From Verrucomicrobiota bacterium (GTDB taxonomy: Bacteria; Verrucomicrobiota; Verrucomicrobiia; Opitutales; Opitutaceae), in the NCBI GenBank assembly GCA_026398135.1, contig JAPLTN010000073.1, positions 18,043-42,042 on the forward strand: 24,000 nt of DNA, given 5' to 3'. Below the pieces are notes generated by a model. The model saw nothing but the letters and a program-made list of their open reading frames with translations, did no database searches and was not told where the DNA came from. Both the position numbers and the translations under genes were made by a program. This document shows positions 3,868 through 21,946 of this stretch, one piece after another; position 1 is the first letter of the stretch, and every line of letters begins with the position of its first letter.

Positions 3868-3907
3868 TCGCTCTTTCCCACTCCCGTTCCACTCCATTTA
3901 GTAAATT

Positions 3908-5956: not shown

Positions 5957-6547
5957 GCCTAAATCCGGCAGCAGGAATTAACCACCGATTGCAGAGAGAG
6001 TACGGATAAAGGCAGTTACTGATCAGATATCCATGAATGAATAATCACCCGAAGGGTGAGCATAGTGAGTTCTATAATGCCTTGATAATACGTGTCTATC
6101 TGTGGAATCCGTGGTTCAACTGCTTTTTCCAGGTATAATACCGCCCCCAGCCAATGATACTATAATCCAAAGTGATCTGCTTTATTTTAATAAAACGACC
6201 GCACCTGGCTCCGATTTCCGCCAAATCATAACAAGCAAACAAAAACCACATGATTAATACTATTTCGCATTCTGTAATATAAAATCTCATTATCTCCCGT
6301 AGGGCGTTCGCTCGCGAATGCCGTGCCGTGCGATATGCGTCGGGCGAGCGCGGACGTCGGCGAGCGACGTCCCTACAATCGGAATCAGGCATCACTCCGT
6401 TTTTATACGTTTGAAAGCGAAAGGGTATCAGGCTGCCCGTGCTTCATGAACCCCAATCAACCGCCGTCAGCAAAGCGGCAGGCCGCACTCGCCGCATCGC
6501 CCACTCCATACGTTGGGCTCCAGTGTTACACCGGGCATCACGGCGCG

Positions 6548-7663
6548 TCACCTATCCAGCACGCTTGAAAGCAGCGGTGCGGAGCGGCCAAAGCGGGTCC
6601 GATACTCGGCCAGCGTGGGCACTAAGCGCACCTTCACCTTGGCCTCGTGATTAAGCGCAATGCTGGAAAGCGCGTGGTTAAGAAACGGATTCCGAAATCG
6701 ATCCAGCGTAGCGCGCGCGAAGGCCTCGGCCTCCGGCGCACGCTCGGCAATAACCGGCACGATCTCCTCGGCCAAAACCCGCTCCAGCCAGGGACCGACC
6801 TCGGGGTGCTCGACACACTCACGGACGGTTTTTAGGCCCATGGGCATTGCGTGCGCCACCAGCGCGGTATGCGCGCCGTTGAGGATTCTCACTTTGCGCA
6901 GATAATACGGCGCGAGATCGGAAGTAAGCGTGACCGCCGGATGTTTAAAAAACGGTTGATCCCCCTGCACCTCCACGCCCCAAAAGGCGAAGGGCTCGGC
7001 ACTGAGCAGCAGGGGGTCGGTGTCCTTTAATGGATGCGTTTCCGGCGGGCCGGGCACGATACGGTCAACGAGATTGTCCACCCAGCGGCAGGCTTCCCGC
7101 AACCAGCTTTGGGCGGCGGAAGAAACGCTCCAACGCACGGCCTGGGTGAGCACCAATTCGCGGAGTTTTTGACCATTTTTCTCGATCAATTCGCAGGGCA
7201 CAATGGCGGGGGCGGGCAGTCCGGCGGCATGACGGGCGAGCAACACGTCGAGTAATTTGGCCGGAAACGAATGCGGCGTTTGCCCGCAGCCCGGCGGGAG
7301 TGGGCCGTCACGATCGTCCAGGGCGAAACCGGCCTCGGTGGTGTTGGACAAGATCCAGCGCAAGTCGGGCGAACAGGCGACCTCGCGCACCTCGCTCCAC
7401 TGGGTGCCCGCGTGCAAGGCGCGTGAAATCGAATCCACCGTTTCGACTTCATTCACGACCTGACCTGCGGCGTAACCTTGGATGGCTACGTGGTAGCGAC
7501 CGGCGGCGGCGTTGAGCGCATCGGCGCGAGCGCGGTCGGTGGACTGCACCACCACGATCCGACCGATACAAGTGGCCGGATCACGGTTCGCCTGGGCGAT
7601 GAATAAATCGGCAAAGGCTCGCAGGAAATTACCGGCGCCGAATTGGAGGATGGTTTCAGACAT
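6548..7663 (-). CDS. uxaB: Mannitol-dehydrogenase-family oxidoreductase, tagaturonate reductase (altronate oxidoreductase)-like
   Basis: The N-terminus ILQFGAGNFLRAFADLFI matches the UxaB/UxuB Rossmann start (E. coli IIQFGEGNFLRAFVDW). It lies directly downstream of uxaA on the same strand. At 371 aa it is shorter than E. coli UxaB. Confidence 0.7.
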   Translation of the reverse strand: MSETILQFGAGNFLRAFADLFIAQANRDPATCIGRIVVVQSTDRARADALNAAAGRYHVAIQGYAAGQVVNEVETVDSISRALHAGTQWSEVREVACSPDLRWILSNTTEAGFALDDRDGPLPPGCGQTPHSFPAKLLDVLLARHAAGLPAPAIVPCELIEKNGQKLRELVLTQAVRWSVSSAAQSWLREACRWVDNLVDRIVPGPPETHPLKDTDPLLLSAEPFAFWGVEVQGDQPFFKHPAVTLTSDLAPYYLRKVRILNGAHTALVAHAMPMGLKTVRECVEHPEVGPWLERVLAEEIVPVIAERAPEAEAFARATLDRFRNPFLNHALSSIALNHEAKVKVRLVPTLAEYRTRFGRSAPLLSSVLDR

Positions 7664-7726
7664 GGTCAGATGGGGCGAGTGGGCGGAGGTTTAAAATAGC
7701 GGAAATATCGCGAGGGCAGCCCTCCG

Positions 7727-9253
7727 TCAGAGCGTCACGCCATCCTTCCAGATGGCGATTTCGCGGTGGCCCCGGGTCTCGTTGCGGGTGCGTTGACGGC
7801 CGGAAGCATAGTCGAGAATCTGCTGCCAGAGTGCGTCGCTGAGCTGGTCGAAATCGGCCGTGCCGTCGGCGATGGGACCGGCGTTGAAGTCGATCCAATG
7901 CGGTTTTCGCGTGGCGAGATCGGTGTTGCTGGAGATTTTCACCGTGGGCACGGGGAAGCCCATCGGGTTGCCGCGCCCGGTGGTGAACAAGATCAGGTGC
8001 GCACCGGCCACGGTCATGGCGGTGCCGGACACACCGTCGTTGCCCGGTCCTTGCACGAGGGCGAGTCCGCCGAGGCCGGGTTTTGCGGGCGTTCCATAGG
8101 GAAGAACTTGGGCGACAGGGGCTTGTCCGCCTTTCTGCACGCAGCCGAGGGACTTGTCGGCGAGGGTGGTGATGCCGCCGTCCTTGTTTCCCGGAGACGG
8201 ATTTTCGTCGATGGGCTCGTTGTGCTTTCGGAAATAGGCGCGGAAGTCGTTAACCAGATTCACGACGCCGGTGAACGCCGTTTCGTCCACCGTGCGTTCC
8301 AACAGCATGCGTTCGGCCCCGAACATTTCCGGCACCTCGGTGAGCAGCACGGTGCCACCGGCGGCGGCGTGGCGGTCGGCAATGCGGCCGACCAAGGGAT
8401 TGGCGGTTATGCCGCTAAACCCATCCGAACCGCCGCACTTCATGCCGAGAATAAGCTCGGAGACAGGAATGGGCTGGCGCTTGAAACCGCGGACATAAGC
8501 GGCGAGTTCGCGCACGGCGGCCAGCCCGGACTCGATCTCATCCGAGACCTGTTGCGCGTTAAACCAGCGGATGCGTTCCGAGGCTTGCGGACCGAGCAGG
8601 GCCAAAAAGGCCTTCATCTGGTTGTTTTCGCAACCGAGGCCGAGCACCAGCACGGCGGCCGCGTTGGGGTGGCGGGCGAGGCCGGCCAGGACCTTCTGGG
8701 TGTAGCCAAGATCATCGCCCAGTTGCGAACAGCCAAAGGGGTGGGGAAAAGCATGCACGCCGTCGATGCCTGACCCCGGTGCAGCCAGTTCGGCATGGGC
8801 GGCGGCGGCGATTTTTTCCGAAGCCACGTTCACGCACCCGACGGTGTTGACGATCCAGATTTCGTTGCGAGTCGCGGCGCGGCCGTCCGGGCGACGATAG
8901 CCATCGAAAGTGGCGGTAGGACGCTGGCCAGCAGCGGCGGGGCGTTGACCGGTACGGGCCACCTCCGAAAAACGAAGGGTTTCCAGCGTCTCGGGGAGAT
9001 TTCCCCGGACATTATGCGTATGGACATGAGCACCGGCAGGGATGGCGGTGGAAGCAACGCCGATGGCATAACCGTATTTCTTTACGACGGATCCTGCCTC
9101 GATGCGGGCCAGCGCGACCTTGTGGCCGGCCGGGATGGCTTCCACGACTCGAACCCCGAGACACTCGGCGCCGACCTCGGCCGGACGGAGGGCGACGGCT
9201 ACGTTATCCTCGGGGTGAATACGGAGAAATCCGAAAGCGGGTGTTGAACTCAT
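7727..9253 (-). CDS. uxaA: Altronate dehydratase (altronate hydrolase)
   Basis: 508 aa, the typical UxaA length. It has a SAF-like N-terminus (LRIHPEDNVAVALRP...IPAGHKVAL), a conserved core (GMKCGGSDGFSGITANP) and a C-terminal GD_AH_C-like end (LILFTTGRGNPMGFPVPT). Confidence 0.9.
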   Translation of the reverse strand: MSSTPAFGFLRIHPEDNVAVALRPAEVGAECLGVRVVEAIPAGHKVALARIEAGSVVKKYGYAIGVASTAIPAGAHVHTHNVRGNLPETLETLRFSEVARTGQRPAAAGQRPTATFDGYRRPDGRAATRNEIWIVNTVGCVNVASEKIAAAAHAELAAPGSGIDGVHAFPHPFGCSQLGDDLGYTQKVLAGLARHPNAAAVLVLGLGCENNQMKAFLALLGPQASERIRWFNAQQVSDEIESGLAAVRELAAYVRGFKRQPIPVSELILGMKCGGSDGFSGITANPLVGRIADRHAAAGGTVLLTEVPEMFGAERMLLERTVDETAFTGVVNLVNDFRAYFRKHNEPIDENPSPGNKDGGITTLADKSLGCVQKGGQAPVAQVLPYGTPAKPGLGGLALVQGPGNDGVSGTAMTVAGAHLILFTTGRGNPMGFPVPTVKISSNTDLATRKPHWIDFNAGPIADGTADFDQLSDALWQQILDYASGRQRTRNETRGHREIAIWKDGVTL

Positions 9254-9317
9254 GCAGCCAGATATAGGGGGCGCGGCTGATCGACTGAAGGATTTTAGGA
9301 TAGCTGAAGACCTCGCA

Positions 9318-10163
9318 ATGACCCAAACTGCTTGTTCGATGTCGAAACTGCCCCATGCGATTGTTCGTCCCCCTGCCGGTCGTCCCTGCTGGGTGAGTCA
9401 CGGCAACCTGCCTCTTTTGTATCTTGGCTGGGGCAAGCGGGATTTCCATAAATCACCTTTGCCCAGGCACTGCGACGCGGGGACCAGTTTTTATCTACTG
9501 ACCAAGGGCGAGGCGCTCCTGGCGACGGCGAAAGGGGAACAGAGAATCATCGCGCCCTGCGCTTGTTTAATTGACCGGGACTGCATGTTTGGAATCTCAA
9601 ACAAGCGCGCCACCGGAGTTGAAATCCTGGTGTGGGTCTGGCGCGACGCGCCGGGTTCCGACTCGCTTACTCCATTGGCCGGAGACCTGAGTGTGCGGCC
9701 ACTTCGTTCGGAATCCTTGCCCAGATTGATCGAACTCCATCAGCAATGCCGCGACGAGGTCGCCCGTAATGAACCCGACGTTTCAGTCACGCTTTCGGCG
9801 CTACGCACCTTGGTCGAAGTGGAGCTGCTTCGTGCCGGACGCGCGCCCGAGAACGAAGACCGCCGCCTCTGGCAGCGGGTAAGCGACTGGATTAGCGCGA
9901 ATTTATCCATTCACGCTCCGATCCCTGCCCTGTGCGATTACCTGCGAGTTTCGCCCAGCACCCTGACCCGTTTTTTCAAAAAGCACACGAAGCAGTCTCC
10001 CGGCGTGTATTTCCGAAAAATGAAACAACAGGAAGCGCTGCGCTTGATCCAAAGCGAGGGATGGTCGGTCAAGGCAGCCGCATTCCACTTAGGTTATCGT
10101 CATGCCACGGATCTGAGCCGAGCTTTGGCAAAGGCAGCACCCCCGCCACCGGGTCTTACCTAA
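9318..10163 (+). CDS. AraC-family transcriptional regulator
   Basis: C-terminal double HTH: IPALCDYLRVSPSTLTRFFKKHTKQSPGVYFRKMKQQEALRLIQSEGWSVKAAAFHLGYRHATDLSRALAK. The ORF-track start at 9252 would overlap the divergent uxaA start, so an internal ATG at 9318 (or 9339) is preferred. Confidence 0.85.
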   Translation: MTQTACSMSKLPHAIVRPPAGRPCWVSHGNLPLLYLGWGKRDFHKSPLPRHCDAGTSFYLLTKGEALLATAKGEQRIIAPCACLIDRDCMFGISNKRATGVEILVWVWRDAPGSDSLTPLAGDLSVRPLRSESLPRLIELHQQCRDEVARNEPDVSVTLSALRTLVEVELLRAGRAPENEDRRLWQRVSDWISANLSIHAPIPALCDYLRVSPSTLTRFFKKHTKQSPGVYFRKMKQQEALRLIQSEGWSVKAAAFHLGYRHATDLSRALAKAAPPPPGLT

Positions 10164-10305
10164 TTCTACTTTGTTAAAAACGAAAAATGGCCGCAAAAAA
10201 GTCGCAGAAGTCACAAAAATGAAGGCTTGTTTTTGCGCTTTTTGAGCCTTTTTGCGGCATTCGCGGGTGTTTCCGTCGTAATGTTTCCGAATTAACAAAG
10301 TAGAA
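10164..10305. repeat. 142-bp imperfect palindromic element with perfect 14-bp terminal inverted repeats (TTCTACTTTGTTAA ... TTAACAAAGTAGAA)
   Basis: The left inverted repeat is 10164-10177 and the right is 10292-10305. The interior is A-rich on the left and T-rich on the right, with internal complementary blocks (aatggccgcaaaaa / tttttgcggcatt; aaggct / agcctt). It is bounded exactly by the araC stop TAA (10161-10163) and the rpoZ stop (10306-10308, minus strand). Confidence 0.7.
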
Positions 10306-10524
10306 CTAGCGCTGGGCCAGCTCTTCCGCCGTAGGCAGCCGGTAGCTGATTTTGCCCTCAATGATCTCGCGCAAGGCGACATCCTCGGGAGCCAGTTTTT
10401 CCAGCGAAACAACCAGGGGACGCGCTCCCGCCCGCAGTTGCTTCACGCGGCGCGAAACCACGTTCACCAAGATATTCGGATCGGTAATCAACCGCCGGGC
10501 GTTTTGCAGATAATCGTCTCTCAT
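10306..10524 (-). CDS. rpoZ: DNA-directed RNA polymerase subunit omega
   Basis: 72 aa. NILVNVVSRRVKQLRAGARPLV...EDVALREIIEGKI parallels E. coli omega ([22 protein letters not shown]...VIALREIEEGLI). Confidence 0.75.
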   Translation of the reverse strand: MRDDYLQNARRLITDPNILVNVVSRRVKQLRAGARPLVVSLEKLAPEDVALREIIEGKISYRLPTAEELAQR

Positions 10525-10729
10525 GGTTGGGTGGCTAACAGGGTGGAAAAGTTCATGGGCTTAGGCAGAACGTGAATGATATAAATGCTTAAAAAATAAC
10601 GCGATACCTATTAAATATTCACCCGAGTTAAGGGCAATCCGCTCGCCCGCCAGCGCCTTGCGCATCCCCGTTCCTTCAGATCCGTCACCCAAATACGCTC
10701 ACCCCACGTCGCCACCGGCTGACCTAGGC

Positions 10730-11512
10730 TCAGCCGCGTGCCCGGCGCAGCGCGATCACCGCCTCGCGCAGCTCCTCCGCCAAGGCCTTTCGTTCTCCCG
10801 CCGCGCCCCGCACGCAGCCCCAGGCCACATGCGCGCGCACCCAGGGCACGGTGGTCAGATTCGTCAGATGCGGGCCCAACTCCATGGCGCCCCACCAAGC
10901 GATTTCCTCGGCCACCGACACCCCCGCCGCCGCCGTATAATCCAACGCCACCGGCACCACCGGCCACCCCGCCGTGATCGCCGGCTCCAGCAACGCCGAC
11001 TTAAACCGCCCCACCCCGCCGCCATCGGTCGAGGTGCCCTCAAGAAAAACCGCCACATTCACCCCCGCCCGCAGCGCCGCCGCCATTTCCGCGCCCACCC
11101 GCGCCGCATCCCGCACCCGTCCCCGATCAATAAACAAGGTCCCCGCCCGCCGCGCCAAGCCGCCGAAAACCGGCCAGCCCGCCACCTCCTTTTTCGCCAC
11201 AAACACCGTCGGAGCCAGCGCGCCCAAAACCAACACATCCAGGTAACTCAGGTGGTTGGCCACGATCAGAGCCCCCTGCTTCGGCGGAGTGCCTGTGGTC
11301 TCCAGATTAATCCCCAACACCCGCAAGAGCCGCGCGCACAAGCCCTGCAAACCCCGCGCCCGGTCGGCCAATCCCGCCTCCCCCGCCAAGCCGCCGAGCA
11401 CCACCCCGCCCGCCCACGCGCCGCCCAGGACCAGCCCGAGGGCCAGGCCCCGCCCCGCCCCCCGTCCGTAATCCGTGATCGTTCGCCTGCGCATTTCCCC
11501 ACCCCGCATCAC
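10730..11512 (-). CDS. Lysophospholipid/lyso-aminolipid O-acyltransferase (PlsC/OlsA-like)
   Basis: Contains the HX4D motif in LIVANHLSYLDVLVL, plus FLEGTSTDGG (the FPEGT-type block) and an N-terminal hydrophobic anchor. The start lies in GTGATG (11512-11507) and overlaps the upstream stop TGA 11511-11509. Confidence 0.8.
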   Translation of the reverse strand: MMRGGEMRRRTITDYGRGAGRGLALGLVLGGAWAGGVVLGGLAGEAGLADRARGLQGLCARLLRVLGINLETTGTPPKQGALIVANHLSYLDVLVLGALAPTVFVAKKEVAGWPVFGGLARRAGTLFIDRGRVRDAARVGAEMAAALRAGVNVAVFLEGTSTDGGGVGRFKSALLEPAITAGWPVVPVALDYTAAAGVSVAEEIAWWGAMELGPHLTNLTTVPWVRAHVAWGCVRGAAGERKALAEELREAVIALRRARG

Positions 11513-12321
11513 GCGAGGTATTTACGCAAGACCCGCTCCGGCACCGCCTGCAAATCGAGCCAGGTCAAAAAATCCACCGTGCCAAACTCCCGGTCCAGCG
11601 CCGGCGCCCCGCAGAGTTTCGCCCCGAGCGCCAGATACGCCCCCAGCAATCTCGGTATTTTCACCTGTCCAAAGCCGGTTAACCGTCTCGTTTTTCGCTC
11701 ATTTACACCCTCTTCCACTCCCGCCTCGTCGCAGCTCCAACCCGCCAGCGGCACCGTGCGCCAGCGCGGCTCCACCCAATGCCGCTCGGCCAACACCGCC
11801 CAAGCCTCGCGCCCTTCCGACGCCTCCCGCGAGGTCAAGGAACTGCACCCGGTCAGATAACGCGCGCCTCGCTCCGCCGCATACTCCGCAATTCCGCGCC
11901 AGAGCAGCGCCAGCACCGTCTGGTTGCGATGCTCCCGGTCCACGCAGGCCCGCCCCAGCTCCACCAACTCGCCCCGCACCGGCTCGAAGGGCGCGAAATC
12001 AAATTCCCGCGCCGAGTAGTAACCCAGCCCGCTCGCCGCCGCCCTCGCGCCGGTCTGCAAACGATAGGTTCCCACCACCCTTCGCTCCGACCGCGTTTCC
12101 ACCAGCAAGTGATCGCACACCGCATCAAACTCGTCCGCATCCCGCCCGCTCGCCACCGAACGCGCCAGCCCTTCCGCCAGCTCCAGGTTAAACACTTCAA
12201 ACCGCAAACGCTGCGCCGCCGCCACGTCCGCCTCCGTGCCCGCCAGCCGCAGGCGATACGCCCCGGTTTCCCGCGTCGCCGCCAAGGTATTCCGTTTTCC
12301 CGTGCTCAGATGTATTTTCAT
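11509..12321 (-). CDS. GNAT-fold N-acyltransferase, OlsB-like (aminolipid N-acyl amino acid synthase family)
   Basis: AAQRLRFEVFNLELAEGL...GRDADEFDAVCDHLLV follows the pattern of S. meliloti OlsB (AAQRLRYRVFVEEM...DFDAWDSVCDHLLV). Its ATG forms an ATGA overlap (12318-12321) with the upstream gene's stop. Confidence 0.8.
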   Translation of the reverse strand: MKIHLSTGKRNTLAATRETGAYRLRLAGTEADVAAAQRLRFEVFNLELAEGLARSVASGRDADEFDAVCDHLLVETRSERRVVGTYRLQTGARAAASGLGYYSAREFDFAPFEPVRGELVELGRACVDREHRNQTVLALLWRGIAEYAAERGARYLTGCSSLTSREASEGREAWAVLAERHWVEPRWRTVPLAGWSCDEAGVEEGVNERKTRRLTGFGQVKIPRLLGAYLALGAKLCGAPALDREFGTVDFLTWLDLQAVPERVLRKYLA

Positions 12322-13967
12322 CGCGCGCCCTCCGCTTTGCGCCCCGACGCCCGCACCAGCTCGCGCACCTCGCGCCAGCTCCAGACCCGCGCCCCGCGCG
12401 CCCGATTCGCCGCCCCGATCTCATAGGCCAGCCGCCACTGCCGGCACAGCATCCGCCAGCCAAACCAGACCGAATGCCTCGGATCATAGATGCTCGTCGC
12501 CTCCGAGCTCAGTCCATTCAGCTCGATCACGGTAAACTCCCCGCGTTGCAACGCCTCCGCCGACGCTGTGCGCACATCGTAACGCCCGAAACAAAATCCT
12601 TCAAAAGTCGCACTCACCGCCTCGACCGCCGCCTCCAGCGCGGGCGTGCGCCAGCCCTCCCCATCCAAAAACAACGCCCCCCGGCAATGCGTGCCCAGCT
12701 CGGCCAACACCACCGCCACCCCCGCCGCCGGCATTTCCCCCAAGCGCGCGCCATAGGTATTAAGAAAAAACTTCGCCATGCCCACCGCCCGGTCGTCACC
12801 GAGAATCAGTTCCTCCAGCGTCCGCCGCCCGTCCCCCGTCACACGCAACACCCGTTTGTCCGTGATCGCGAACAGCTCGCCCCGCGCCGCCGCCGGGTGC
12901 CGCGTGTAAAACAACCCAAACTCCACCCCCGGCACATAGGCCTGCGCGATCAGCCGCGCCGGATCCGCGGCCACTTTCTCCCCCACCTCGGCCACGCTGC
13001 GCGCAATAACCACGCCCGTGCCGCGTTCGCCCACATCGGGTTTCAACACCACCGGCCACGCCGTCGGCAAACCGGCCTGAAACGCCGCCACCGCCTCCGC
13101 CCGCGTATCCGCCGCGCCGGGCTCGATCACCGTCCATGTCGCCACCCGTTCGCCCGCGCCCGCCAGGCCGCGCAAAATTTCGCTCTTCGATTCCCCCACC
13201 AGCCCGCCACCCGCGCCGATCCCCGGATTCGCCGCCGTGCAGACCGTCCACCCGCCGTGCCGCCAGCCCAGCCATAGCACGTAAATCACCACCGGCGGAT
13301 ACACCGCCCAGCTCGGCCAGTATTCCCAATGCGTAAGCCGCCGTAGCCGCGAAACCCAGAGTCGCCGCCCGCGCCAGCTCGCCAGACTTTGCCCCAGTCG
13401 CAGCCCCGCCCAAGCCAGCAAAGCCGCCGCCGCAAGCCCGGCCGACCACTGCCGCCAACCGGCCAGATCCGTCACCACCGCCTCGCCCAAGCTCCAGCTC
13501 AAGCCCACCACCAGGGGAGCCCACACCGCCACCGCCGCCGCGAACCACAGCGCCAGCCGTCCCCACGGAGCGCGCAAGACCCCCGCCGCCAGATAAAGCG
13601 GCAAACGCGTACCCGGCACGAAGCGACTGATAAAAATCGCCCGCCCTCCGCGTTGCGCGAACCACGCCTCCGCCCGCGCCAGCCCCTCCGCCGACACCCG
13701 CCCGCGCAAGGGCCAGCGTTGCAAAGCCGCCCGCCCCAGCCCCCGGCCCACCGCGACCAGGATCAGATCACCGGCCACGATGCCGGTAAAACACGCCAGC
13801 GTCGCCGCCCAGAAATCCAGCCGCCCCGCCGCCACCAGCAACCCGCCCGCCACGCAGGCCAGATCATCGCTGGCAAATGTCGCCAGGGCCAAGGCCAGCA
13901 GCACCCAGGCCGTCCCGCCCCAGGCCGCCGCATTCGCCACCCACTCCAGGACTGTCGCCGGGCTCAC
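12318..13967 (-). CDS. Fusion protein: N-terminal DedA/VTT (SNARE-associated) membrane domain + extra TM helices + C-terminal ATP-grasp ligase domain
   Basis: The DedA signature is GDLILVAVGRGLG...FISRFVPGTRLPLYLAAG. Further hydrophobic helices follow (YWPSWAVYPPVVIYVLWLGW). ATP-grasp blocks are VVLKPDVGERGTGVVIARS, AQAYVPGVEFGLFY and VIELNGLSSEATSIYDP. The start is reassigned to GTG 13967, which forms GTGA with the NRDE stop. The ORF-track start at 14084 would overlap the NRDE gene by 121 nt. Confidence 0.75.
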   Translation of the reverse strand: MSPATVLEWVANAAAWGGTAWVLLALALATFASDDLACVAGGLLVAAGRLDFWAATLACFTGIVAGDLILVAVGRGLGRAALQRWPLRGRVSAEGLARAEAWFAQRGGRAIFISRFVPGTRLPLYLAAGVLRAPWGRLALWFAAAVAVWAPLVVGLSWSLGEAVVTDLAGWRQWSAGLAAAALLAWAGLRLGQSLASWRGRRLWVSRLRRLTHWEYWPSWAVYPPVVIYVLWLGWRHGGWTVCTAANPGIGAGGGLVGESKSEILRGLAGAGERVATWTVIEPGAADTRAEAVAAFQAGLPTAWPVVLKPDVGERGTGVVIARSVAEVGEKVAADPARLIAQAYVPGVEFGLFYTRHPAAARGELFAITDKRVLRVTGDGRRTLEELILGDDRAVGMAKFFLNTYGARLGEMPAAGVAVVLAELGTHCRGALFLDGEGWRTPALEAAVEAVSATFEGFCFGRYDVRTASAEALQRGEFTVIELNGLSSEATSIYDPRHSVWFGWRMLCRQWRLAYEIGAANRARGARVWSWREVRELVRASGRKAEGAR

Positions 13968-14695
13968 CAACCCGCCTCCGTGACCGCGCCCCGCCCATCG
14001 GGACGGCTCCAATCCACCACACGATAAACCAGCTTTGGCTCCTCGCCGGCCCGCACCCGCACCCGGCACACGCTGCGCGTGCACGCATCCGCCCGGCTCA
14101 TCCGCACCGACTCCGCCCCCCGCTCCGGATCATGCCGCCAATGCAACGCCTCCGCCGTTTGCGCGGTCAGGCCCGCCCGCACCGCCTCCGCGTAACGCGC
14201 CTCCCGCGCCACCCTGATCTGGCTCGACGCATACGACGACGAGGTCGCAAAGCCCGCCCCGGCCCAGTCGCGCCATTCCGCCCCGTTCCAATGCAATCCT
14301 CCGCTCCGTCCGCGTGCATCCACCGCCACGGTCAAAAACGGCCCGAAATTCGCCGCGCCCGAGCGCTCCACCCAAACCCGCATTGCGCGCAGGGCCTCCC
14401 CGGCATCCGAAGCGTCCATGCCCGCCAGCGGCACGCCGCCCCGGCTCATTTTACCCCCCGCTCCGCCGCCGGTTTCGTAATCGTTGAGTAACCCCACGCT
14501 CAGCCCGGCGCGGTTCAAAGCCAGCCAAGTTCCGCCCCGCGCCCCATCGCGTGGAGCCACATACTCCATACCCGCCGCCGTCACCGCCGTCCCCGGGGCG
14601 AATTCCGGCGCGCGCGTGCGCTGCTCGTCGCGATTAAACCACAAATCATAACCGCCGCCCGACTCGGGCGCGGGCAAAATACTCACGGTGCACAT
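13964..14695 (-). CDS. NRDE/TANGO2-family protein (Ntn-hydrolase-like, Cys2)
   Basis: The N-terminus MCTVSILPAPESGGGYDLWFNRDEQRTRAP contains the family's eponymous NRDE motif and a Cys directly after the initiator Met. It is 243 aa. Confidence 0.8.
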   Translation of the reverse strand: MCTVSILPAPESGGGYDLWFNRDEQRTRAPEFAPGTAVTAAGMEYVAPRDGARGGTWLALNRAGLSVGLLNDYETGGGAGGKMSRGGVPLAGMDASDAGEALRAMRVWVERSGAANFGPFLTVAVDARGRSGGLHWNGAEWRDWAGAGFATSSSYASSQIRVAREARYAEAVRAGLTAQTAEALHWRHDPERGAESVRMSRADACTRSVCRVRVRAGEEPKLVYRVVDWSRPDGRGAVTEAGW

Positions 14696-14717
14696 GGTTT
14701 ATTCTAATTCACCTTCA

Positions 14718-14749
14718 AGTTTGGCTGAATTGGCCGGGACGGCCAAACT
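14718..14749. repeat. REP-type hairpin singleton (TTGGCCG-GGA-CGGCCAA) with an alternative outer stem
   Basis: 14730-14746 is identical to the core hairpin of the REP units at 23080-23096, 23767-23783 and 23870-23886. An outer pair agtttggc (14718-14725) / gccaaact (14742-14749) competes with the inner stem. It lies in the 86-bp gap between the DinB stop and the NRDE start. Confidence 0.7.
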
Positions 14750-14781
14750 CAGTAAAACCTCATCTCGTAGGCTAATGGAAT

Positions 14782-15321
14782 TTATCCCCCGCAACGGCGA
14801 AACCGCAGGGTGGATGGCGCCACTCCGAAATCCACCGGCGTCGGTTTGCCGCCGAGCGCGCACACCACCGCGATCAAGGCATAATGGTGAATCGTGTGAC
14901 TGAGCAAAAACTCCAGCTCACGCCCCACGCTCGATGGATTGAGAACCGCGGCATCCTCCCGCCCCACCATCTCGGATCGCACCTCCACGGTGCTCTCCAG
15001 AAAATCGTCGGCCAGCGCCGACAGCTCTTCGCGCAGCTGCTCCAGGCGTATCACCGCATACGCAGGCTCGTTTTCAATCCGCGCATCGCGCGCCCTCGCC
15101 TCGTAATCCACCACCCCGGTGCGCCGCGCCTGCAGGAAGCTCTCATAGTGCTCGATCACGTGGCGCAGATGCCCGCCGATGGAGCTGTTAAAACACGCCG
15201 GTTCGCGCCGCACGTAAGCCGCCTCGCCCAGCGCCGCCAGTAAATCGCGCCCCTGCGCCAAGGCTTCCAGATTGTCGCGCACCGCCAGATCGAGATGCGG
15301 TGATTTAAGTAAGGATGTCAT
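14782..15321 (-). CDS. DinB-superfamily (DinB_2-like) metal-dependent protein
   Basis: Histidine-rich helix motifs HLRHVIEHYESF and LLSHTIHHYALI are typical of the DinB four-helix-bundle family. The start is moved to ATG 15321, which forms an ATGA overlap with the YHS gene stop. The longer ORF-track form (15387) would overlap that gene. Confidence 0.6.
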   Translation of the reverse strand: MTSLLKSPHLDLAVRDNLEALAQGRDLLAALGEAAYVRREPACFNSSIGGHLRHVIEHYESFLQARRTGVVDYEARARDARIENEPAYAVIRLEQLREELSALADDFLESTVEVRSEMVGREDAAVLNPSSVGRELEFLLSHTIHHYALIAVVCALGGKPTPVDFGVAPSTLRFRRCGG

Positions 15322-15761
15322 TTCTTGAGTAGTTCCGGCCAGTTTTGCTGTGCTTTGACGATATTGCCCGGCACGTCGTCTTCCCACTGCTTCTGCACCT
15401 TGAGACTATAGTTCAGGTATAAGCGATCCCCGACTAGTTTCCACGCCGCCGGATCGATGCCCGCCGTGTAGCCCCGGCTCACCGCCCAGGCGCAGTAGCC
15501 GCCAAACTGCGGCGCGTATTTGTCCGGTGCGCCGGCAAACAGATCCCGGTTGGCCGCGCTGGCAAAACGCCAGGTCGCGCCGTTCCAGCTGAACTCAAAT
15601 CGATCCGACCCTTCCACCGGCCTCGCCTGGGTAAAATACGCCACCGGATCGTAGCCTTTAATGGCCACACCCGTCCACGTGGTGTTGACCGGTTTTTCCG
15701 CCCGCAGGCCGCCCAGTCCGAGACACAGCCCGGCGATAATAAAACGTATCAGTTTTTTCAT
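15318..15761 (-). CDS. Secreted YHS-domain protein
   Basis: Signal peptide MKKLIRFIIAGLCLGLGGLRA. The body AIKGYDPVAYF...FEFSWNGATWRFASAANRDLFAGAPDKYAPQFGGYCAWAV is the characteristic YHS-domain periplasmic protein pattern. Confidence 0.75.
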   Translation of the reverse strand: MKKLIRFIIAGLCLGLGGLRAEKPVNTTWTGVAIKGYDPVAYFTQARPVEGSDRFEFSWNGATWRFASAANRDLFAGAPDKYAPQFGGYCAWAVSRGYTAGIDPAAWKLVGDRLYLNYSLKVQKQWEDDVPGNIVKAQQNWPELLKK

Positions 15762-15772
15762 AAAAAGGAGTT

Positions 15773-16177
15773 TCAGAGTTTAGCGCCGATGATGGGTAAG
15801 GCCCGGCGATGCAGCCAGATCACCCCGGCGGAGGCCGCCCACGTGATCAGCGCCAGCGCGAAGAGCAAACCGCCGTCGCCCTGCACCGCGATTCCGAGTT
15901 TCGTCAGGTGGAAAAAAATCGCCCCGCTCATCGTGCCCAGCGCCAGCAACGCGCCCAAGGGCGTCGTCGCCGGCACCCACAAGAGCACGCACGCGATCAG
16001 CTCCACCACGCCCGAACCGATGCGGCCGGCCGGCTCCTGCCCGACCTGCTCAAAGATATAGACGGACTCCGGCGCGCCGGAGAATTTAAAGAACAGGGTT
16101 TGTCCCAGGATGATGGTCGCGGTGAGACGCAGCGCCCGGCTGAGCCAGCGGTATTGAGTGAGGTTCGTTTCGTTCAT
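15773..16177 (-). CDS. DoxX-family small integral membrane protein
   Basis: 134 aa with four hydrophobic segments. The pattern GQTLFFKFSGAPESVYIFEQVG...GVVELIACVLLWVP...MSGAIFFHL is DoxX-like. Confidence 0.65.
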   Translation of the reverse strand: MNETNLTQYRWLSRALRLTATIILGQTLFFKFSGAPESVYIFEQVGQEPAGRIGSGVVELIACVLLWVPATTPLGALLALGTMSGAIFFHLTKLGIAVQGDGGLLFALALITWAASAGVIWLHRRALPIIGAKL

Positions 16178-16234
16178 GCGCGGGTAAGAGTCGTCCTCGC
16201 CGGGTTTATTCCCGGCGATTTTTAGCGCACCGTT

Positions 16235-16984
16235 TTAGAGCACCGCATGCAGCGCATCCATGCCCGCATCCGACACCATCACGTAGGCGAGCCGGGCGTC
16301 CGCCCAAGTGACGGCGGCCAGGTTACCTTCTTCGCGAAACCGGGGTTTCACATCAAAACCCGCACCACCGAAATCATCCCGTCGTGCAATGTAGAGATGC
16401 ATCTCGCCCACGCCTTCGCGCACGAAACACACCTCCAGCAACTCGCGTCCCGCGATGGTCACGGTGCGGCAGCCGCCCGCCTTGAGTGCCGCGAAATCCA
16501 GCGGCAGTCCCGCCGCCAAACGGAAGCGCGCATCGGCCAGAATGGTCTTCAAGGCACCCCGTCCGCCCAGGGCCAGCGGCGCGTGTTCCGGCGAACTCAT
16601 CTCCGCCATCACCCCCAGAGCCAATTGCTCCGCACCGGGGCCGGATCGCAGGCCGTTCCAAAACACACCGAGACCAAAAACCAGCGTCAGGCTCGCCGCC
16701 AGCGCGAGGGCTCGGCCGGTTTGCCACCACGGCGTGGAGCGCTGCATTCTCGCGCCGGCCAGAATGGCGTCGCGCAGACCGGGCGGCGGCCCCACTTCGC
16801 GCAAACGCTCCGCCACCGCCGAATCGAAGGCCTGTTCCCGCGCCAGCCAGCCGGTCAAAACCGGATCGCGCGCGGCCTGGGCCAGCGCCTCGGAAAAGGG
16901 CGCTTGCGCATCATCGCGCCCATCGGGACGCCGCGCCTGCAGGATGAATTTTGCCTCGTTGGTATTCATGATGTTTTTCGCCAT
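16235..16984 (-). CDS. Membrane anti-sigma factor (single TM, periplasmic C-terminal domain)
   Basis: It immediately follows and overlaps the ECF sigma gene. The N-terminal cytoplasmic region is followed by one TM segment (ALALAASLTLVFGLGVFW). An alternative start at ATG 16969 forms an ATGA overlap with the sigma stop (16966-16969). Confidence 0.6.
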   Translation of the reverse strand: MAKNIMNTNEAKFILQARRPDGRDDAQAPFSEALAQAARDPVLTGWLAREQAFDSAVAERLREVGPPPGLRDAILAGARMQRSTPWWQTGRALALAASLTLVFGLGVFWNGLRSGPGAEQLALGVMAEMSSPEHAPLALGGRGALKTILADARFRLAAGLPLDFAALKAGGCRTVTIAGRELLEVCFVREGVGEMHLYIARRDDFGGAGFDVKPRFREEGNLAAVTWADARLAYVMVSDAGMDALHAVL

Positions 16985-17526
16985 TCCCGTCCCTCTTGGT
17001 TTAAAAACGGAATCACTTTGCGTTCCTCCGCCCCCGCCAGCCGCCCCAGTGCGGCGCGCAACTGCGCCTTCCCGCGCGAAAGCCGCGACATCACCGTGCC
17101 GACCGGCACCTCCAGGAGCGCCGCGATCTCCTGGTAGGCCATTTCCTCCAGATAAAACAGGGTGAGCGCCGCCCGGAATCCTTCGTCCACTTCCTGCAAG
17201 GCCTGCACCACCAGCTTGGCGTCGAATTTCAGATCGAGATTTTCCGCCTCGTCCGCCGGATCCTGTTCACCGGGCGGCAAATCCTCCAACGCCGTCACCC
17301 TCGCCCCGCGCCGCCGCCCGCGCAGAAACTCGCGGTAGAGGGTGGTAAACAGCCACGTCTTCGCCTTGGCAATTTCGCGCAACGACTGCCCCTTCGTCGC
17401 CCACACGTAGAAGGTCTGCTGCACCAAGTCGCACGCATCGGCTTCGCTGCGCGCCAAACTGAGCGCGAAACGATACAGGGCCGCGTAATGCGCATCGACC
17501 AAGCGGTTAAAAAGTTCATCTGCCAT
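16966..17526 (-). CDS. ECF-type RNA polymerase sigma-70 family factor
   Basis: Region 2 reads YAALYRFALSLARSEADACDLVQQTFYVW. Region 4 HTH reads FYLEEMAYQEIAALLEVPVGTVMSRLSRGKAQLR. The start is taken at ATG 17526 (MADELF...); the track start at 17556 is the alternative. Confidence 0.9.
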   Translation of the reverse strand: MADELFNRLVDAHYAALYRFALSLARSEADACDLVQQTFYVWATKGQSLREIAKAKTWLFTTLYREFLRGRRRGARVTALEDLPPGEQDPADEAENLDLKFDAKLVVQALQEVDEGFRAALTLFYLEEMAYQEIAALLEVPVGTVMSRLSRGKAQLRAALGRLAGAEERKVIPFLNQEGREWRKTS

Positions 17527-17739
17527 TGCAGGCAAGAGATACGAACCGCCCCGCATATTCCCGTTAAATACGATAATTCATCAAAACGTCACGTATCGGA
17601 GCGTTTTCAGCGGCGGCAAAAACGAACATCCGCTCGCTGTGCAGCCGTTCTTTCCGAGTTCTTGCCGCTCCTTCTGCGCATGCACCTCCGCGTTTTTCCT
17701 TCCGCCGCCGCCCGCGCCCGCCACAGTGGCCGTTTCCGC

Positions 17740-20196
17740 ATGCTGCGCCTCCTGCTCCCGCCCAATCTTCCCGCCGCCGCCATCCGCGACGCCATCCCGG
17801 TCAAAGTCGAGTTCGACCCCGCCACCCCGCCCCCGCCCGCGCAACTGCCCGCCCTCGCCCTGCTCTCCCGTATCTGCGGCGGAGCCCCCACCCCGCCGCC
17901 CTTCGTCCAGCTCACCCGCACCCAGCTCCGCGAACTGGTCGCCGCCCTCTCCGGCCAGCCCGTCTTCGCCGCCATCGCCGAACCCGCCAAAAGCCTGCTC
18001 TGGCTCGGCCCCCGCCTGCGCGGCGTCAGCGAACACCTCACCGCCGCCACGCCGCTGCCCGCCACCCCGCCCCCGCCCGCCGCCTCCGCCGGTCCGCGCT
18101 CCCTCTCAATGCGCACGCCCCGCATCGTGCCGCGCGACGAACCCGTCACCCCTATGCAAGTGGACGGCAGCGAACACTTCCTCGCCATCTCCCTGCCCTC
18201 CCGCGAAGCCCCCGCCTACGCCGCCGCCCGCGAACTGCTCTCCGCCCAGGGCTTCGCCCTCGATCCATCCTCCAAAAAGTGGTGGCTGCGCGACCGCCAC
18301 AAGGTGCTCAACTTCCTCGCCCAGCACGGCGACACCCTGCGTTCCCGCTTCCACGCCGACTTCACCCCCAACTTCGACAAAAACGCCGCCCTGCTCGCCA
18401 CCGCCGAGGTCGAGACCAAGGTCACCGACGCCGGCAATGGCGAATTCTCCGTCACCGTCGGCCTCGCCGCCGGCAAGGTCACCGAAGAGGACCTGCGCAA
18501 CGCCCTCGCCACCGGCCGTCGCTTCGTCGAGGACGGGAAAAAAATCTACCTCCTCCCGCCCGAGCAAATCGAACGCCTCGCCAAGGCCCAGGCCGCGCTC
18601 GCCGGCGGCACCGCCGCGCCGGTCGTGGCCCGCAAGGTCCAGCGTGTCACCGCCGCCCGGATACCCGAGCTCCAGGAAATGCTCGACGAGCTCTCGCCCG
18701 ATTACCAGCCGCCCGCCGCCTGGCGCCGTCGCGCCGAGGCCCTGCGCGACCTCGAAAAACTGGAGGCCGCCCCCCTGCCCCCTACCTTCGCCGCCACCCT
18801 TCGCCCCTACCAACACATCGGCGTCGCCTGGCTCTGGCACCTCCACCGCCACGATCTCGGCGGCATCCTCGCCGACGAAATGGGCCTGGGCAAAACCGCC
18901 CAGGCCATCGCCCTGCTCTCCGCCATCGCCCACGCCGCGCCGGAGAAAAAACGCCAGCCATCCCTCGTCGTCTGCCCCGCCTCCCTGGTCGAAAACTGGC
19001 GGCGCGAGGCCGCCCGTTTCGCCCCCGCCCTGCGCGTCTTCGTGCACCACGGCAGCAACCGCCTGCCCTCCGTCGCCGCCGCCAGCGACTACGATATGTT
19101 TATCACCTCCTACGGCACCCTCGGCCGCGACTCGGAGCTGTTTTCCGAGATCGACCTCGCCACCCTGATCGCCGACGAAGCCCAGCACGCCAAAAACCGC
19201 CGCTCGCTCAACGCCCGCGCCCTGCGCTCCCTCCACGCCCGCAGCCGTCTCCTCCTCACCGGCACCCCGGTGGAAAACTCCCTCGAAGACCTGCGCACCC
19301 TCTTCGAGATCGTGCTCCCCGGCTACGTGGACGCCAAACTGCCCGCCTCCGCCGGTTCCGGGGTCAAGACCACCGACCGCGACTGGCAGGACGAACGCCT
19401 CCGCCGCCAGACCGCACCCTACATTCTGCGCCGCACCAAGTCCGCCGTCGCCACCGAGCTCCCGCCCAAGATCGAGCAGGTCATCCACTGCACGCCCACC
19501 AGCGAACAGCTCTCGCTCTACAACGAATACCAGCGCAAATCCGAGGACCAACTCAACGCCCTCGCCGCCGACGGCGCTTCGGAAAACTCCCAGCGCATGG
19601 CCACCCTCACCCAGCTCCTCCGCCTGCGCCAGATCTGCTGCGATCCGCGCCTGGTCGAGCAAATGGCCGAGGCCTCCTCGTCGTCCAAACTCGAAGCCTT
19701 CCGCGAACTGCTCGCCGAAGCGGTGGACGACGGCCACCGCCTGCTCGTGTTTTCCCAGTTCACCAGCCTGCTCGGCCTCCTCCGCGACGAGTTGGACAAA
19801 CAGGAACTCACCTACTGCTACCTCGACGGCTCCACTCCGCAAAAACAACGCCAGGCCGAGGTGGACCGTTACAACACATCGCCCGACATCCCCGTTTTCC
19901 TCATCTCGCTCAAGGCGGGCGGCACCGGCCTCAACCTTACCGGCGCGGACACGGTGGTGCACTTCGACCCGTGGTGGAACCCCGCCGCCGAGGCCCAGGC
20001 CACGGATCGAGCGCATCGCATCGGCCAGACCAAAGTCGTGACCAGCTACAAGCTGATCTGCACCGGCACGGTGGAGGAAAAGGTCATGATGCTGCAGGAC
20101 GAAAAACGCCGCCTCCTGGCCGACGTCTTCGAAGCCAGCGACGCCGTAAACGCCAAACTCACCCTCGCCGACCTGCGCAGCCTGCTGGTGGGTTAG
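17740..20196 (+). CDS. SNF2-family (RapA/HepA-like) DEAD/DEAH-box helicase with long Pro/Ala-rich N-terminal region
   Basis: Helicase motifs: ILADEMGLGKT (I), IADEAQHAKN (II, DEAQ), LLLTGTPVEN (III), and C-terminal LISLKAGGTGLNLTGADTVVHFDPWWNPAAEAQATDRAHRIGQ (V/VI). The track ORF starts at 17488, inside the divergent sigma gene, so ATG 17740 (or 17680) is preferred. Confidence 0.9.
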   Translation: MLRLLLPPNLPAAAIRDAIPVKVEFDPATPPPPAQLPALALLSRICGGAPTPPPFVQLTRTQLRELVAALSGQPVFAAIAEPAKSLLWLGPRLRGVSEHLTAATPLPATPPPPAASAGPRSLSMRTPRIVPRDEPVTPMQVDGSEHFLAISLPSREAPAYAAARELLSAQGFALDPSSKKWWLRDRHKVLNFLAQHGDTLRSRFHADFTPNFDKNAALLATAEVETKVTDAGNGEFSVTVGLAAGKVTEEDLRNALATGRRFVEDGKKIYLLPPEQIERLAKAQAALAGGTAAPVVARKVQRVTAARIPELQEMLDELSPDYQPPAAWRRRAEALRDLEKLEAAPLPPTFAATLRPYQHIGVAWLWHLHRHDLGGILADEMGLGKTAQAIALLSAIAHAAPEKKRQPSLVVCPASLVENWRREAARFAPALRVFVHHGSNRLPSVAAASDYDMFITSYGTLGRDSELFSEIDLATLIADEAQHAKNRRSLNARALRSLHARSRLLLTGTPVENSLEDLRTLFEIVLPGYVDAKLPASAGSGVKTTDRDWQDERLRRQTAPYILRRTKSAVATELPPKIEQVIHCTPTSEQLSLYNEYQRKSEDQLNALAADGASENSQRMATLTQLLRLRQICCDPRLVEQMAEASSSSKLEAFRELLAEAVDDGHRLLVFSQFTSLLGLLRDELDKQELTYCYLDGSTPQKQRQAEVDRYNTSPDIPVFLISLKAGGTGLNLTGADTVVHFDPWWNPAAEAQATDRAHRIGQTKVVTSYKLICTGTVEEKVMMLQDEKRRLLADVFEASDAVNAKLTLADLRSLLVG

Positions 20197-20240
20197 GTCA
20201 CACACTGTCGCGACACAAGGCCGTCCGTACTTTGCCTTTC

Positions 20241-20278
20241 TTGACCCGCTGAGCATTTTCGCATAAAAATGTTTTTAT
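20241..20278 (+). promoter_or_regulatory. Putative sigma-70-type promoter plus palindromic operator for vapBC-1, possibly giving a leaderless mRNA
   Basis: TTGACC (20241-20246), a 17-nt spacer, then TAAAAA (20264-20269). The palindrome ATAAAAA-TG-TTTTTAT (20263-20278) spans the -10 and the first two bases of the vapB ATG (20277). Only 7 nt separate the -10 from the ATG, and no SD is visible. Confidence 0.35.
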
Positions 20279-20537
20279 GAGAACCACCCTCGACCTGCCC
20301 GACCCGCTGTTTCGCGAACTCAAGGCCCGGTCCGCCTTGCGCGGTGTGCTGCTCAAGGACTTCGTCGCCGAAATCATCCAGACCGGCCTCGCCCAAACCA
20401 CCGCCGCCCAGGCTGAAGCCCGTCCACGCAGTCCCCTGCCCGTGATCCGCAAGGCCACCGGCGTCGCCCACCCCGCCCTTTCCAACCGCGAAATCGACGC
20501 CCTGCTCGTCGCCGAGGATGCCCATGGCGGCAATTGA
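20277..20537 (+). CDS. vapB: Type II antitoxin, VapB-like
   Basis: 86 aa. The N-terminus MRTTLDLPDPLFRELKARSA is typical of antitoxins paired with PIN toxins. It overlaps the downstream PIN gene by 20 nt. Confidence 0.7.
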   Translation: MRTTLDLPDPLFRELKARSALRGVLLKDFVAEIIQTGLAQTTAAQAEARPRSPLPVIRKATGVAHPALSNREIDALLVAEDAHGGN

Positions 20538-20958
20538 CGTCCCCGACCTCAACCTCTGGCTCGCCCTCATCGACCCGGACCACGCGCACCACACCCGCGC
20601 CCGCCGCTACTGGGATCACGAGGCCGCCGCCGAAATCGCCTTTTGCCGCGTTACCATGCTGGGCCTGCTTCGCCTGCTCACCAACTCGCGGGTGATGCAT
20701 GGAGTGCCGTTTACACCCGGCGAGGCCTGGGATGCCTACCGCGCCTTCGCCGTGTTACCCGAGGTCTATTTCGTCGAAGATTCCCTCGCCGCCGAAAAAC
20801 GCTTTGAACTCTGGAGCCGCGTCCCTGGATTTCCCGCCCACCGTTGGACCGACGCCTGGATCGCCGCCCTCGCCTCGTCTGCCGGAGCCCGGGTCGTCTC
20901 CTTCGACTCCGATTTCACCAACTTCCCCGACCTCGATTTTCTCCACCTGCGCCCATGA
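20518..20958 (+). CDS. vapC: PIN-domain ribonuclease toxin, VapC family
   Basis: IDVPDLNLWLALIDPDHAHH matches the DVNVWLAL-type N-terminus carrying the first acidic residue. The C-terminus is DAWIAALASSAGARVVSFDSDF. ATG 20524 is an alternative start. Confidence 0.8.
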   Translation: MPMAAIDVPDLNLWLALIDPDHAHHTRARRYWDHEAAAEIAFCRVTMLGLLRLLTNSRVMHGVPFTPGEAWDAYRAFAVLPEVYFVEDSLAAEKRFELWSRVPGFPAHRWTDAWIAALASSAGARVVSFDSDFTNFPDLDFLHLRP

Positions 20959-21150: not shown

Positions 21151-21204
21151 CCACCGCTGGCAAATCGCCATCATGGTAAATTACCAGCCAGGCCCAATCT
21201 CGCC

Positions 21205-21447: not shown

Positions 21448-21481
21448 TCGCGCCTCCTTACCCTCGCCTCCCACGCGGCCC

Positions 21482-21922: not shown

Positions 21923-21924
21923 GG

Positions 21925-21946
21925 CGTTGGCCGGGACGCCCAACCA
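21925..21946. repeat. Degenerate REP-like hairpin copy (gcgttggccgggacgcccaacc)
   Basis: It shares gcgttggccgggacg with the REP units but the right arm has diverged (gcccaac instead of gccaac). It sits directly after the vapC-2 stop codon. Confidence 0.35.

Follow-up and report, generated by a model that had tools for sequence, protein, structure and literature searches.

What does an ATP-grasp ligase do when it is joined, in one polypeptide, to a membrane domain of the DedA family? This question is raised by a gene on a stretch of 24,000 nt from a Verrucomicrobiota bacterium of the Opitutaceae (assembly GCA_026398135.1, contig JAPLTN010000073.1, positions 18,043 to 42,042 of the forward strand), which was analysed as a whole and is called the window here. 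An earlier note made from the letters alone, the original prediction, had placed an open reading frame (ORF) encoding such a fusion at 12318–13967. We found a single continuous ORF of 549 aa exactly there, on the minus strand, which the note had left unstated, and all the peptides quoted in it (GDLILVAVGRGLG...FISRFVPGTRLPLYLAAG; VVLKPDVGERGTGVVIARS; AQAYVPGVEFGLFY; VIELNGLSSEATSIYDP) were present in the translation. Our analysis indicated that the fusion is almost certainly real and functional, and that the gene is probably linked to aminolipid metabolism. A more specific reading, to which we give somewhat less than an even chance, is that the fusion has two functions in the inner membrane, as part of an operon for aminolipid remodelling, and combines carboxylate amidation with flipping of the lipid. 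The gene and its parts are the following.

12318–13967, minus strand: complete fusion ORF (DedA/VTT domain, linker and ATP-grasp domain), 549 aa, GTG start
13380–13919, minus strand: DedA/VTT membrane domain, aa 17–196, with the Pfam VTT_dom match at aa 43–156 (13500–13841)
13254–13379, minus strand: basic linker (aa 197–216) and aromatic helix (aa 219–236)
12378–13253, minus strand: predicted divergent ATP-grasp ligase domain, aa 239–530

The frame ends with a TGA at 12318–12320 and can be opened by a GTG at 14084, giving 588 aa, or by a GTG at 13967, giving 549 aa. The GTG at 13967 is likely the start of the gene, since it overlaps the stop codon of the upstream gene (GTGA), has the sequence GGAGG 9–13 nt upstream and makes the protein exactly as long as its closest homologue, P0001 (549 aa, 95% identity, 100% coverage). 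A frameshift or stop missed at the junction could have joined two separate genes, a concern already voiced in the original prediction, and there are loci in which DedA and ATP-grasp are encoded separately. We consider the probability of such an artefact to be negligible. It is ruled out by the thousands of fusions that are present at full length in independent assemblies and in isolate genomes, including Rariglobus hedericola and Horticoccus; moreover, the residues at the junction (W198, R199, R201, R202, L203, E215 and W217) do not vary among 56 sequences, and the structural model described below is confident across the junction.

The fusion is of ancient origin and widely distributed. A search with the full-length protein gave 2252 matches, the top 120 of which covered at least 82% of the query, and an exhaustive search with aa 201–549 gave 2605 clusters (50% identity) at E≤1e-3, 968 of them at E≤1e-30. 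With a profile, 4829 clusters (90% identity) were obtained at E≤1e-10. Among the best 150 of the 2605 clusters, the architecture alpha/beta-hydrolase–DedA–ATP-grasp was found 62 times and DedA–ATP-grasp 56 times, followed by ATP-grasp alone (21), hydrolase–ATP-grasp (10) and ATP-grasp–hydrolase (1). The additional N-terminal alpha/beta hydrolase, of the Abhydrolase_1/6 or Thioesterase type, is present in most relatives (for example in locus L003 at 7044–9638, and in most metagenome loci) and missing from the window protein, which is of the Opitutaceae type. The named members belong to Acidobacteriota (Blastocatellia and others), Gemmatimonadales, KSB1, Opitutaceae and Phycisphaerae. Their database annotations are generic ("alpha/beta fold hydrolase", "VTT domain-containing", "DedA family"), and the co-occurrence of the two domains is already recorded for some entries, which carry PF09335 together with PF08443. 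Full-text searches of a literature library that lacked one potentially relevant survey returned no description of a DedA–ATP-grasp protein or of an ATP-grasp enzyme acting on aminolipids, in line with the earlier statement that no characterised example of this architecture was known. The parts belong to known families, and the logic of an enzyme joined to a flippase is known from MprF; the family itself is large and uncharacterised.

The DedA half was recognised by Pfam VTT_dom in the whole fusion protein with E=2.4e-12 and 47.8 bits (gathering score 33.9), over profile positions 6–120 of 123. D35, D67, R115 and R121 of this domain are invariant among 56 homologues. In an alignment to E. coli YqjA, D35, R115 and R121 correspond to D51, R130 and R136, which, together with E39, we take to be the essential charged residues of YqjA. 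The domain resembles in these respects the DedA superfamily, which includes YqjA, the undecaprenyl-phosphate transporter UptA and the eukaryotic TMEM41B/VMP1, and differs from it in being joined to an enzyme and in having the additional invariant Asp, D67, in its second hydrophobic segment. The best NCBIfam match of the DedA half was UptA (NF052604; E=5e-15), with 56 bits against an equivalog cut-off of 250; scores below the cut-offs ruled out an equivalog of UptA or of E. coli DedA. The UptA match would suit a role in peptidoglycan synthesis, with the DedA domain recycling undecaprenyl phosphate and the ATP-grasp domain adding an amino acid to lipid II or to a carrier-linked intermediate, and Ddl-type ligases are indeed among the fold matches of the second half. 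However, the UptA score lies far under its cut-off and cell-wall genes occurred in none of the surveyed neighbourhoods, and we regard this explanation as very improbable.

The original prediction had named a failure of HMM searches to support either domain as grounds for refutation; in Pfam, this support was obtained for the DedA half but not for the ATP-grasp half of this sequence. Pfam gave no ATP-grasp match even at E≤10, neither with the whole fusion protein nor with its C-terminal half alone. NCBIfam matches of this half were weak (about 2e-4) and far under the cut-offs, and a single-sequence phmmer search against the Protein Data Bank (PDB) also yielded only weak matches (about 1e-4), to cyanophycin synthetase and related ligases. 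The support came instead from the fold and from the family profile. An AlphaFold2 model of the fusion, built from 56 homologues, reached a mean predicted local distance difference test score (pLDDT) of 90.4 and a predicted template modelling score (pTM) of 0.77. Foldseek retrieved 245 matches from the PDB at E≤1e-3, and the best 50 of these 245 were all ATP-grasp enzymes; the matches listed include CphA2 (7ta5; 1e-8, the top match), CphA1, GshF, many Ddl enzymes, VanA and PurD. The family profile matched CphA2 7ta5 with E=3e-9 over about 190 positions (profile positions 293–483), which comprise the central and C-terminal ATP-grasp subdomains, and CphA1 with 5e-7. Three relatives, P0141, P0193 and P0162, exceeded the Pfam gathering score for RimK.

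The conserved features of this half are an NPGxxxGGxxGESKS motif, K309 in VVLKP, a Gly-rich loop (GERGTGV), the hinge Q342...E349, D464 and E482-x-N484. Among the 56 close homologues K309, Q342, E349, D464 and E482 are invariant and N484 is conserved in at least 90%, with GERGxG in the consensus; among 52 sequences of 40–67% identity K309 and Q342 are still invariant, and E349, D464, E482 and N484 are conserved in at least 90%. The ATP-site residues of the fusion align with VVVKP and IEIN of 7ta5. Judged by predicted fold and sequence conservation, the C-terminal half is a divergent ATP-grasp ligase domain with ligation as its predicted activity, and both domains appear to be real and catalytically competent. 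The claim that one polypeptide holds a DedA and an ATP-grasp domain was thus borne out, by VTT_dom, the fold matches, the family profile and the conserved residues.

Among solved structures, CphA1/CphA2 and GshF come closest by fold and profile, and share with the fusion the Lys of VVxKP, the Gly-rich loop, a GDGxxT...LI segment and the E-x-N pattern. The CphA ATP-grasp domain and GshF add an amino acid onto a C-terminal carboxylate. The likeness is restricted to the ATP-grasp core, at about 20% identity, and the fusion, unlike these enzymes, is membrane-integrated. It has no Mur-ligase-like or N domain as in CphA, and the NCBIfam model cya_phycin_syn gave only 19 bits against a cut-off of 850. 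The N-terminal substrate domain usual in ATP-grasp enzymes is reduced in the model of the fusion; its place is taken by a membrane-proximal helix and the NPG...GESKS motif.

The segment between the two domains points to the membrane surface. The linker (aa 197–216) is basic, with six Arg, while the N-terminus of the protein has neither Lys nor Arg. The following segment, aa 219–236, is rich in aromatic residues and moderately hydrophobic, with a hydropathy under that of transmembrane helices, and stand-alone ATP-grasp relatives start with a segment of the same type. We infer that aa 219–236 form an interfacial membrane anchor.

This segment bears on the possibility that the ligase first builds a soluble head group (a dipeptide or a modified amino acid), which would then be N-acylated by the OlsB-like enzyme encoded in the same operon, with the DedA domain exporting the lipid or merely anchoring the ligase. 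The nearest solved relatives GshF, Ddl and CphA do work on amino acids or peptides, the linkage to OlsB-like and OlsA-like genes would suit this order of steps equally well, and aminolipids with dipeptide and tripeptide head groups exist (PMC12971839). On the other hand, the basic and aromatic membrane-proximal segment is found in every member of the family, including the stand-alone proteins, and would be needless for a soluble substrate, and the N-terminal substrate domain is reduced. We therefore consider pre-synthesis of the head group rather unlikely.

The ATP-grasp domain is placed in the cytoplasm because it uses ATP, and relatives lacking DedA allow the hydrolase to be placed relative to it. 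P0151 and P0237 have a basic N-terminus, a transmembrane helix, the hydrolase, one transmembrane helix, a basic linker and the ATP-grasp domain; in P0221 the order is ATP-grasp, one transmembrane helix, hydrolase. As exactly one strong predicted transmembrane helix, an odd count, separates hydrolase and ATP-grasp domain in these three architectures, the hydrolase is predicted to be periplasmic. By hydropathy and charge, on which these topology arguments are based, hydrolase and ATP-grasp domain would lie on opposite sides of the membrane in the DedA-less proteins, and in the three-domain relatives the DedA domain would span between the two compartments.

A hydrolase of esterase type (Abhydrolase_1/6, Thioesterase), predicted to lie across the membrane from the ligase, would also suit a tRNA-independent aminoacyl-lipid synthase. 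Such an enzyme would activate the carboxylate of a free amino acid and transfer the amino acid to a lipid hydroxyl or amine (of phosphatidylglycerol, a glycolipid or the delta-amine of ornithine), the DedA domain would flip the product and the periplasmic hydrolase would de-esterify it, in the manner of MprF with AhyD or VirJ (PMC6103681 for the MprF precedent). Ester formation is within the reach of ATP-grasp enzymes: VanA, which makes D-Ala-D-lactate, is among the fold matches (1e4e). We nevertheless judge this explanation to be unlikely, as it does not by itself account for the tight linkage to OlsB/OlsA, NRDE and DinB genes, and its acceptor is without direct evidence.

The genes around the fusion in the window are arranged as follows, in their direction of transcription.

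16966–17556, minus strand: extracytoplasmic function (ECF)-type sigma factor (Pfam Sigma70_r2 and r4_2)
16235–16984, minus strand: putative anti-sigma factor (weak DUF3379 match, under the Pfam cut-off)
15773–16177, minus strand: DoxX-family membrane protein
15318–15761, minus strand: secreted YHS-domain protein with a hydrophobic N-terminal leader and a GGYCAW motif
14782–15321, minus strand: DinB-family protein, probable ATG at 15321 overlapping the YHS stop (ATGA)
13964–14695, minus strand: NRDE/TANGO2-family protein with invariant Cys2, its stop overlapping the start of the fusion (GTGA)
12318–13967, minus strand: the fusion gene
11509–12321, minus strand: OlsB-like N-acyltransferase (Acetyltransf_5), its ATG overlapping the stop of the fusion (ATGA)
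10730–11512, minus strand: OlsA-like lyso-aminolipid O-acyltransferase (PlsC family; NHLSYLD as HX4D), with a 4-nt overlap with the OlsB-like gene

Start and stop codons overlap by 4 nt at four junctions of this co-directional series (YHS/DinB, NRDE/fusion, fusion/OlsB and OlsB/OlsA), which implies one translationally coupled operon. The protein encoded directly downstream of the fusion matched Acetyltransf_5 with 8e-30 and the NCBIfam model for OlsB with 7e-41 (140.6 bits against an equivalog cut-off of 350). The last protein of the operon has the Pfam Acyltransferase domain and the HX4D motif, and its NCBIfam score was 133.4 against an equivalog cut-off of 300. The adjacent pair of ECF sigma and putative anti-sigma factors, the genes of which overlap, suggests control by envelope stress; such a pair also lies by the fusion cluster in Rariglobus (L011), and only weak or faint matches to it were seen in L095, from a genome of 9.5 Mb. 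Scanning 10000–18200 for promoters and terminators, we found no sigma-70-like sites and terminator-like sites only at chance level.

The spacer of 86 nt between the DinB and NRDE genes (14696–14781, minus strand) can form a stable hairpin with a minimum free energy of -24.8 kcal/mol (z=-3.4; none of 200 shuffled sequences was as good), the core of which, TTGGCCGTCCCGGCCAA, is preserved in L001 despite an adjoining insertion. It may be an RNA element within the operon.

The rest of the window, with genes for hexuronate catabolism, a transglutaminase-like gene and an IS200-like gene, is unrelated to the fusion. Positions 1–9253 are devoted to sugar-acid (hexuronate) catabolism (a short-chain dehydrogenase/reductase, a major facilitator superfamily transporter, a GH30/GH59-like hydrolase, a mannitol-dehydrogenase-family enzyme and an altronate/galactarate dehydratase), and an AraC regulator follows at 9252–10163. 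An ORF of 716 aa without Pfam match at 18106–20256 (minus strand) has a conserved counterpart in L001 (85% identity) and a partial one in L002. Close to the window end, at 23200–23967 (minus strand), a weak IS200-like Y1 transposase domain was found (24.7 bits). The GC skew of the plus strand is strongly negative (to -0.33) over 10001–24000, coincident with the long run of minus-strand genes.

Is the company of the fusion gene in the window a peculiarity of this genome? Iterated profiles of the window proteins were applied to 13 loci from genomes and 80 from metagenomes. Metagenome loci most often have the order OlsB, OlsA, DinB, NRDE and the hydrolase–DedA–ATP-grasp gene, often followed by DoxX, while the Opitutaceae loci show the same order as the window. 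The difference in order implies that the linkage has outlasted rearrangement. In 38 loci the gene is complete and preceded by at least 2.5 kb of sequence, and its neighbours within 8 kb were DinB (32), NRDE (26), OlsB (21), DoxX (19), OlsA (12) and YHS (12). For a gene taken to be roughly single-copy per genome, an adjacency of this kind is far above chance. DedA is encoded by a separate gene in 11 loci, where it immediately precedes the ATP-grasp gene, is placed between DinB and NRDE, or is transcribed divergently. In L005 a protein of 596 aa (7254–9044) has NRDE fused to the ATP-grasp domain. The contig of this locus (QFQQ01000007.1) is labelled as a metagenome-assembled genome of Citrobacter freundii; it has 46% GC and a neighbourhood like those of the Bacteroidota loci L007–L010, and may be misbinned.

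The conserved NRDE neighbour hints at a type of chemistry. Its Cys2, R22-D23-E24 and other residues are invariant among 51 homologues, and its model (pLDDT 94.8) has as nearest folds human TANGO2, CV2077, acyl-CoA:isopenicillin N acyltransferase, bile-salt hydrolases and penicillin V acylases; TANGO2, the isopenicillin N acyltransferase and the bile-salt hydrolases are enzymes of lipid-like acyl amides. PDB sequence searches with the DinB and NRDE proteins gave no match. We also considered that the NRDE protein might supply ammonia as a class-II glutamine amidotransferase, following the logic of AsnB, which the model did not support: no glutamine amidotransferase was among the top 50 folds. 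In a crystallographic paper of 2026, TANGO2 is argued to be a hydrolase of the Cys-Ntn type with fatty-acid derivatives as substrates (PMC13044924). The NRDE neighbour shares with TANGO2 and the bile-salt hydrolase type of Cys-Ntn enzymes the Cys2, the NRDE motif and, in its model, a TANGO2-like fold, and differs in its genetic setting, as a separate gene in the window and as part of the ATP-grasp protein in L005. An enzyme of this clade fits, by its modelled fold, the cleavage or transfer of a lipid-amino-acid amide.

The other steady neighbours allow a different view. DinB-fold enzymes are often thiol-dependent. The proximity of DinB, DoxX and YHS is conserved even in loci that lack OlsBA; YHS and DoxX accompany the cluster across phyla and, with the conserved Cys in GGYCAW of the YHS protein, suggest a periplasmic or membrane redox component. 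With GshF among the closest folds and ECF sigma control indicated, the operon could represent a thiol/redox stress system, in which the ATP-grasp domain would make a small thiol peptide or conjugate, DinB would be a thiol transferase, DoxX and YHS redox partners in the membrane and the periplasm and DedA an exporter coupled to the proton motive force, the aminolipid genes being no more than co-regulated envelope-stress cargo. However, the tethering of the ligase to the membrane, the lipid-amidase-like fold of the NRDE protein and the translational coupling to OlsB all favour a lipid substrate, which makes a thiol system quite improbable in our view.

The aminolipid reading has to be weighed against a number of observations that do not favour it. 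No acidic residue of the fusion protein was aligned to E39 of YqjA, so that a counterpart of this residue is not evident, D34 being adjacent. The OlsB-like and OlsA-like proteins are far under the equivalog cut-offs, which leaves the amino acid of the head group unspecified. No more than about 55% of the well-flanked loci have an adjacent OlsB, DinB and NRDE being the steadier partners; Bacteroidota-type loci have DinB–NRDE–ATP-grasp without DedA or OlsBA nearby, and in some loci the fusion stands without recognisable partners. The 80 metagenome loci were the best-scoring matches and are not phylogenetically independent. Finally, the roles of DinB, NRDE, DoxX and YHS are unexplained by a lipid model and hint at thiol/redox chemistry. 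The four alternatives set out above, namely pre-synthesis of the head group, aminoacylation of another lipid with ester formation, thiol chemistry and a part in the polyprenyl-phosphate or peptidoglycan pathway, retain appreciable weight.

For the aminolipid reading the following course of events can be proposed. In the cytoplasmic leaflet, the OlsB-like and OlsA-like enzymes would produce an amino-acid lipid of the acyloxyacyl type. The ATP-grasp domain, held on the membrane surface by the basic linker and the aromatic helix, would convert a carboxylate (the most probable one being the free alpha-carboxylate on the head group of the aminolipid) to an acyl-phosphate with ATP, and then join it to an amine or amino acid, so that the head group would be extended or amidated. 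This step would chemically resemble the extension of a peptide C-terminus by the CphA ATP-grasp domain. The DedA domain would transfer the lipid to the periplasmic leaflet. In relatives, the fused periplasmic alpha/beta hydrolase, which the window protein does not have, would perform lipid turnover, and the TANGO2-like Cys-Ntn enzyme would probably take part in turnover from the cytoplasm, as an amidase or transacylase. The original prediction had suggested that tethering the ligase to DedA implies a substrate embedded in the membrane and possibly a coupling of its modification to its translocation. Comparative evidence backs this view (the operon with OlsB/OlsA, whose genes are found again beside the fusion across phyla, the separate DedA genes and the topology of the hydrolase), from which we infer the substrate and the flipping.

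Two known systems can be compared with this proposal. MprF/aaPGS unites in one polypeptide a cytosolic head-group-modifying domain and a lipid-translocating membrane domain, and periplasmic hydrolases, AhyD or VirJ, are encoded in operons with it (PMC6103681), where most of the DedA–ATP-grasp relatives carry the hydrolase as a fused domain. The analogy is functional, as there is no homology and no MprF-type Pfam or NCBIfam match was obtained. The fusion would use ATP-grasp acyl-phosphate chemistry, whereas the MprF synthase is tRNA-dependent and GNAT-like; it has a DedA/VTT domain in place of the MprF flippase, and its likely lipid is an aminolipid instead of phosphatidylglycerol. The second system is the OlsB/OlsA pathway of ornithine lipids. 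According to a review of 2026, taurine is transferred to the carboxyl group of ornithine lipid in an ATP-dependent reaction, the gene for which is unidentified, and ornithine lipids accumulate in the outer membrane (PMC12971839). OlsB-like and OlsA-like genes in the operon and the known ATP-dependent amidation of the ornithine-lipid carboxylate liken the fusion to this gene-orphan taurine-ornithine lipid (cerilipin) synthetase; the difference is that both acyltransferases of the window score under their equivalog cut-offs.

Taken to its full extent, the proposal would make this family the first ATP-grasp enzymes to act on a membrane lipid and a tRNA-independent counterpart of MprF: the carboxylate of an ornithine-type lipid would be amidated or extended by a peptide bond in cerilipin-type chemistry, the enzyme's own DedA domain would flip the product, and the TANGO2 homologue would serve as a Cys-Ntn de-conjugase. 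In this complete form we regard it as doubtful, though worth stating for what it would mean. The module could bear on how aminolipids pass across the inner membrane and on the enzymes that extend their head groups, as in taurine-ornithine lipid, serine-glycine lipids and ornithine-serine-glycine lipids. The lipid cargos of DedA proteins are only now being assigned, and an enzyme-fused DedA domain encoded beside lipid synthases offers a handle on both cargo and direction. If the proposal is true, the TANGO2 family, which includes a human disease gene of disputed function, would gain a defined lipid-amide substrate class, and the coupling of a TANGO2 homologue to the ligase, in one case as a fusion, provides a tractable bacterial context for this protein. 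The family is abundant in phyla of soil and freshwater (Acidobacteriota, Verrucomicrobiota, Gemmatimonadota and Planctomycetota), the membrane lipids of which are environmental biomarkers.

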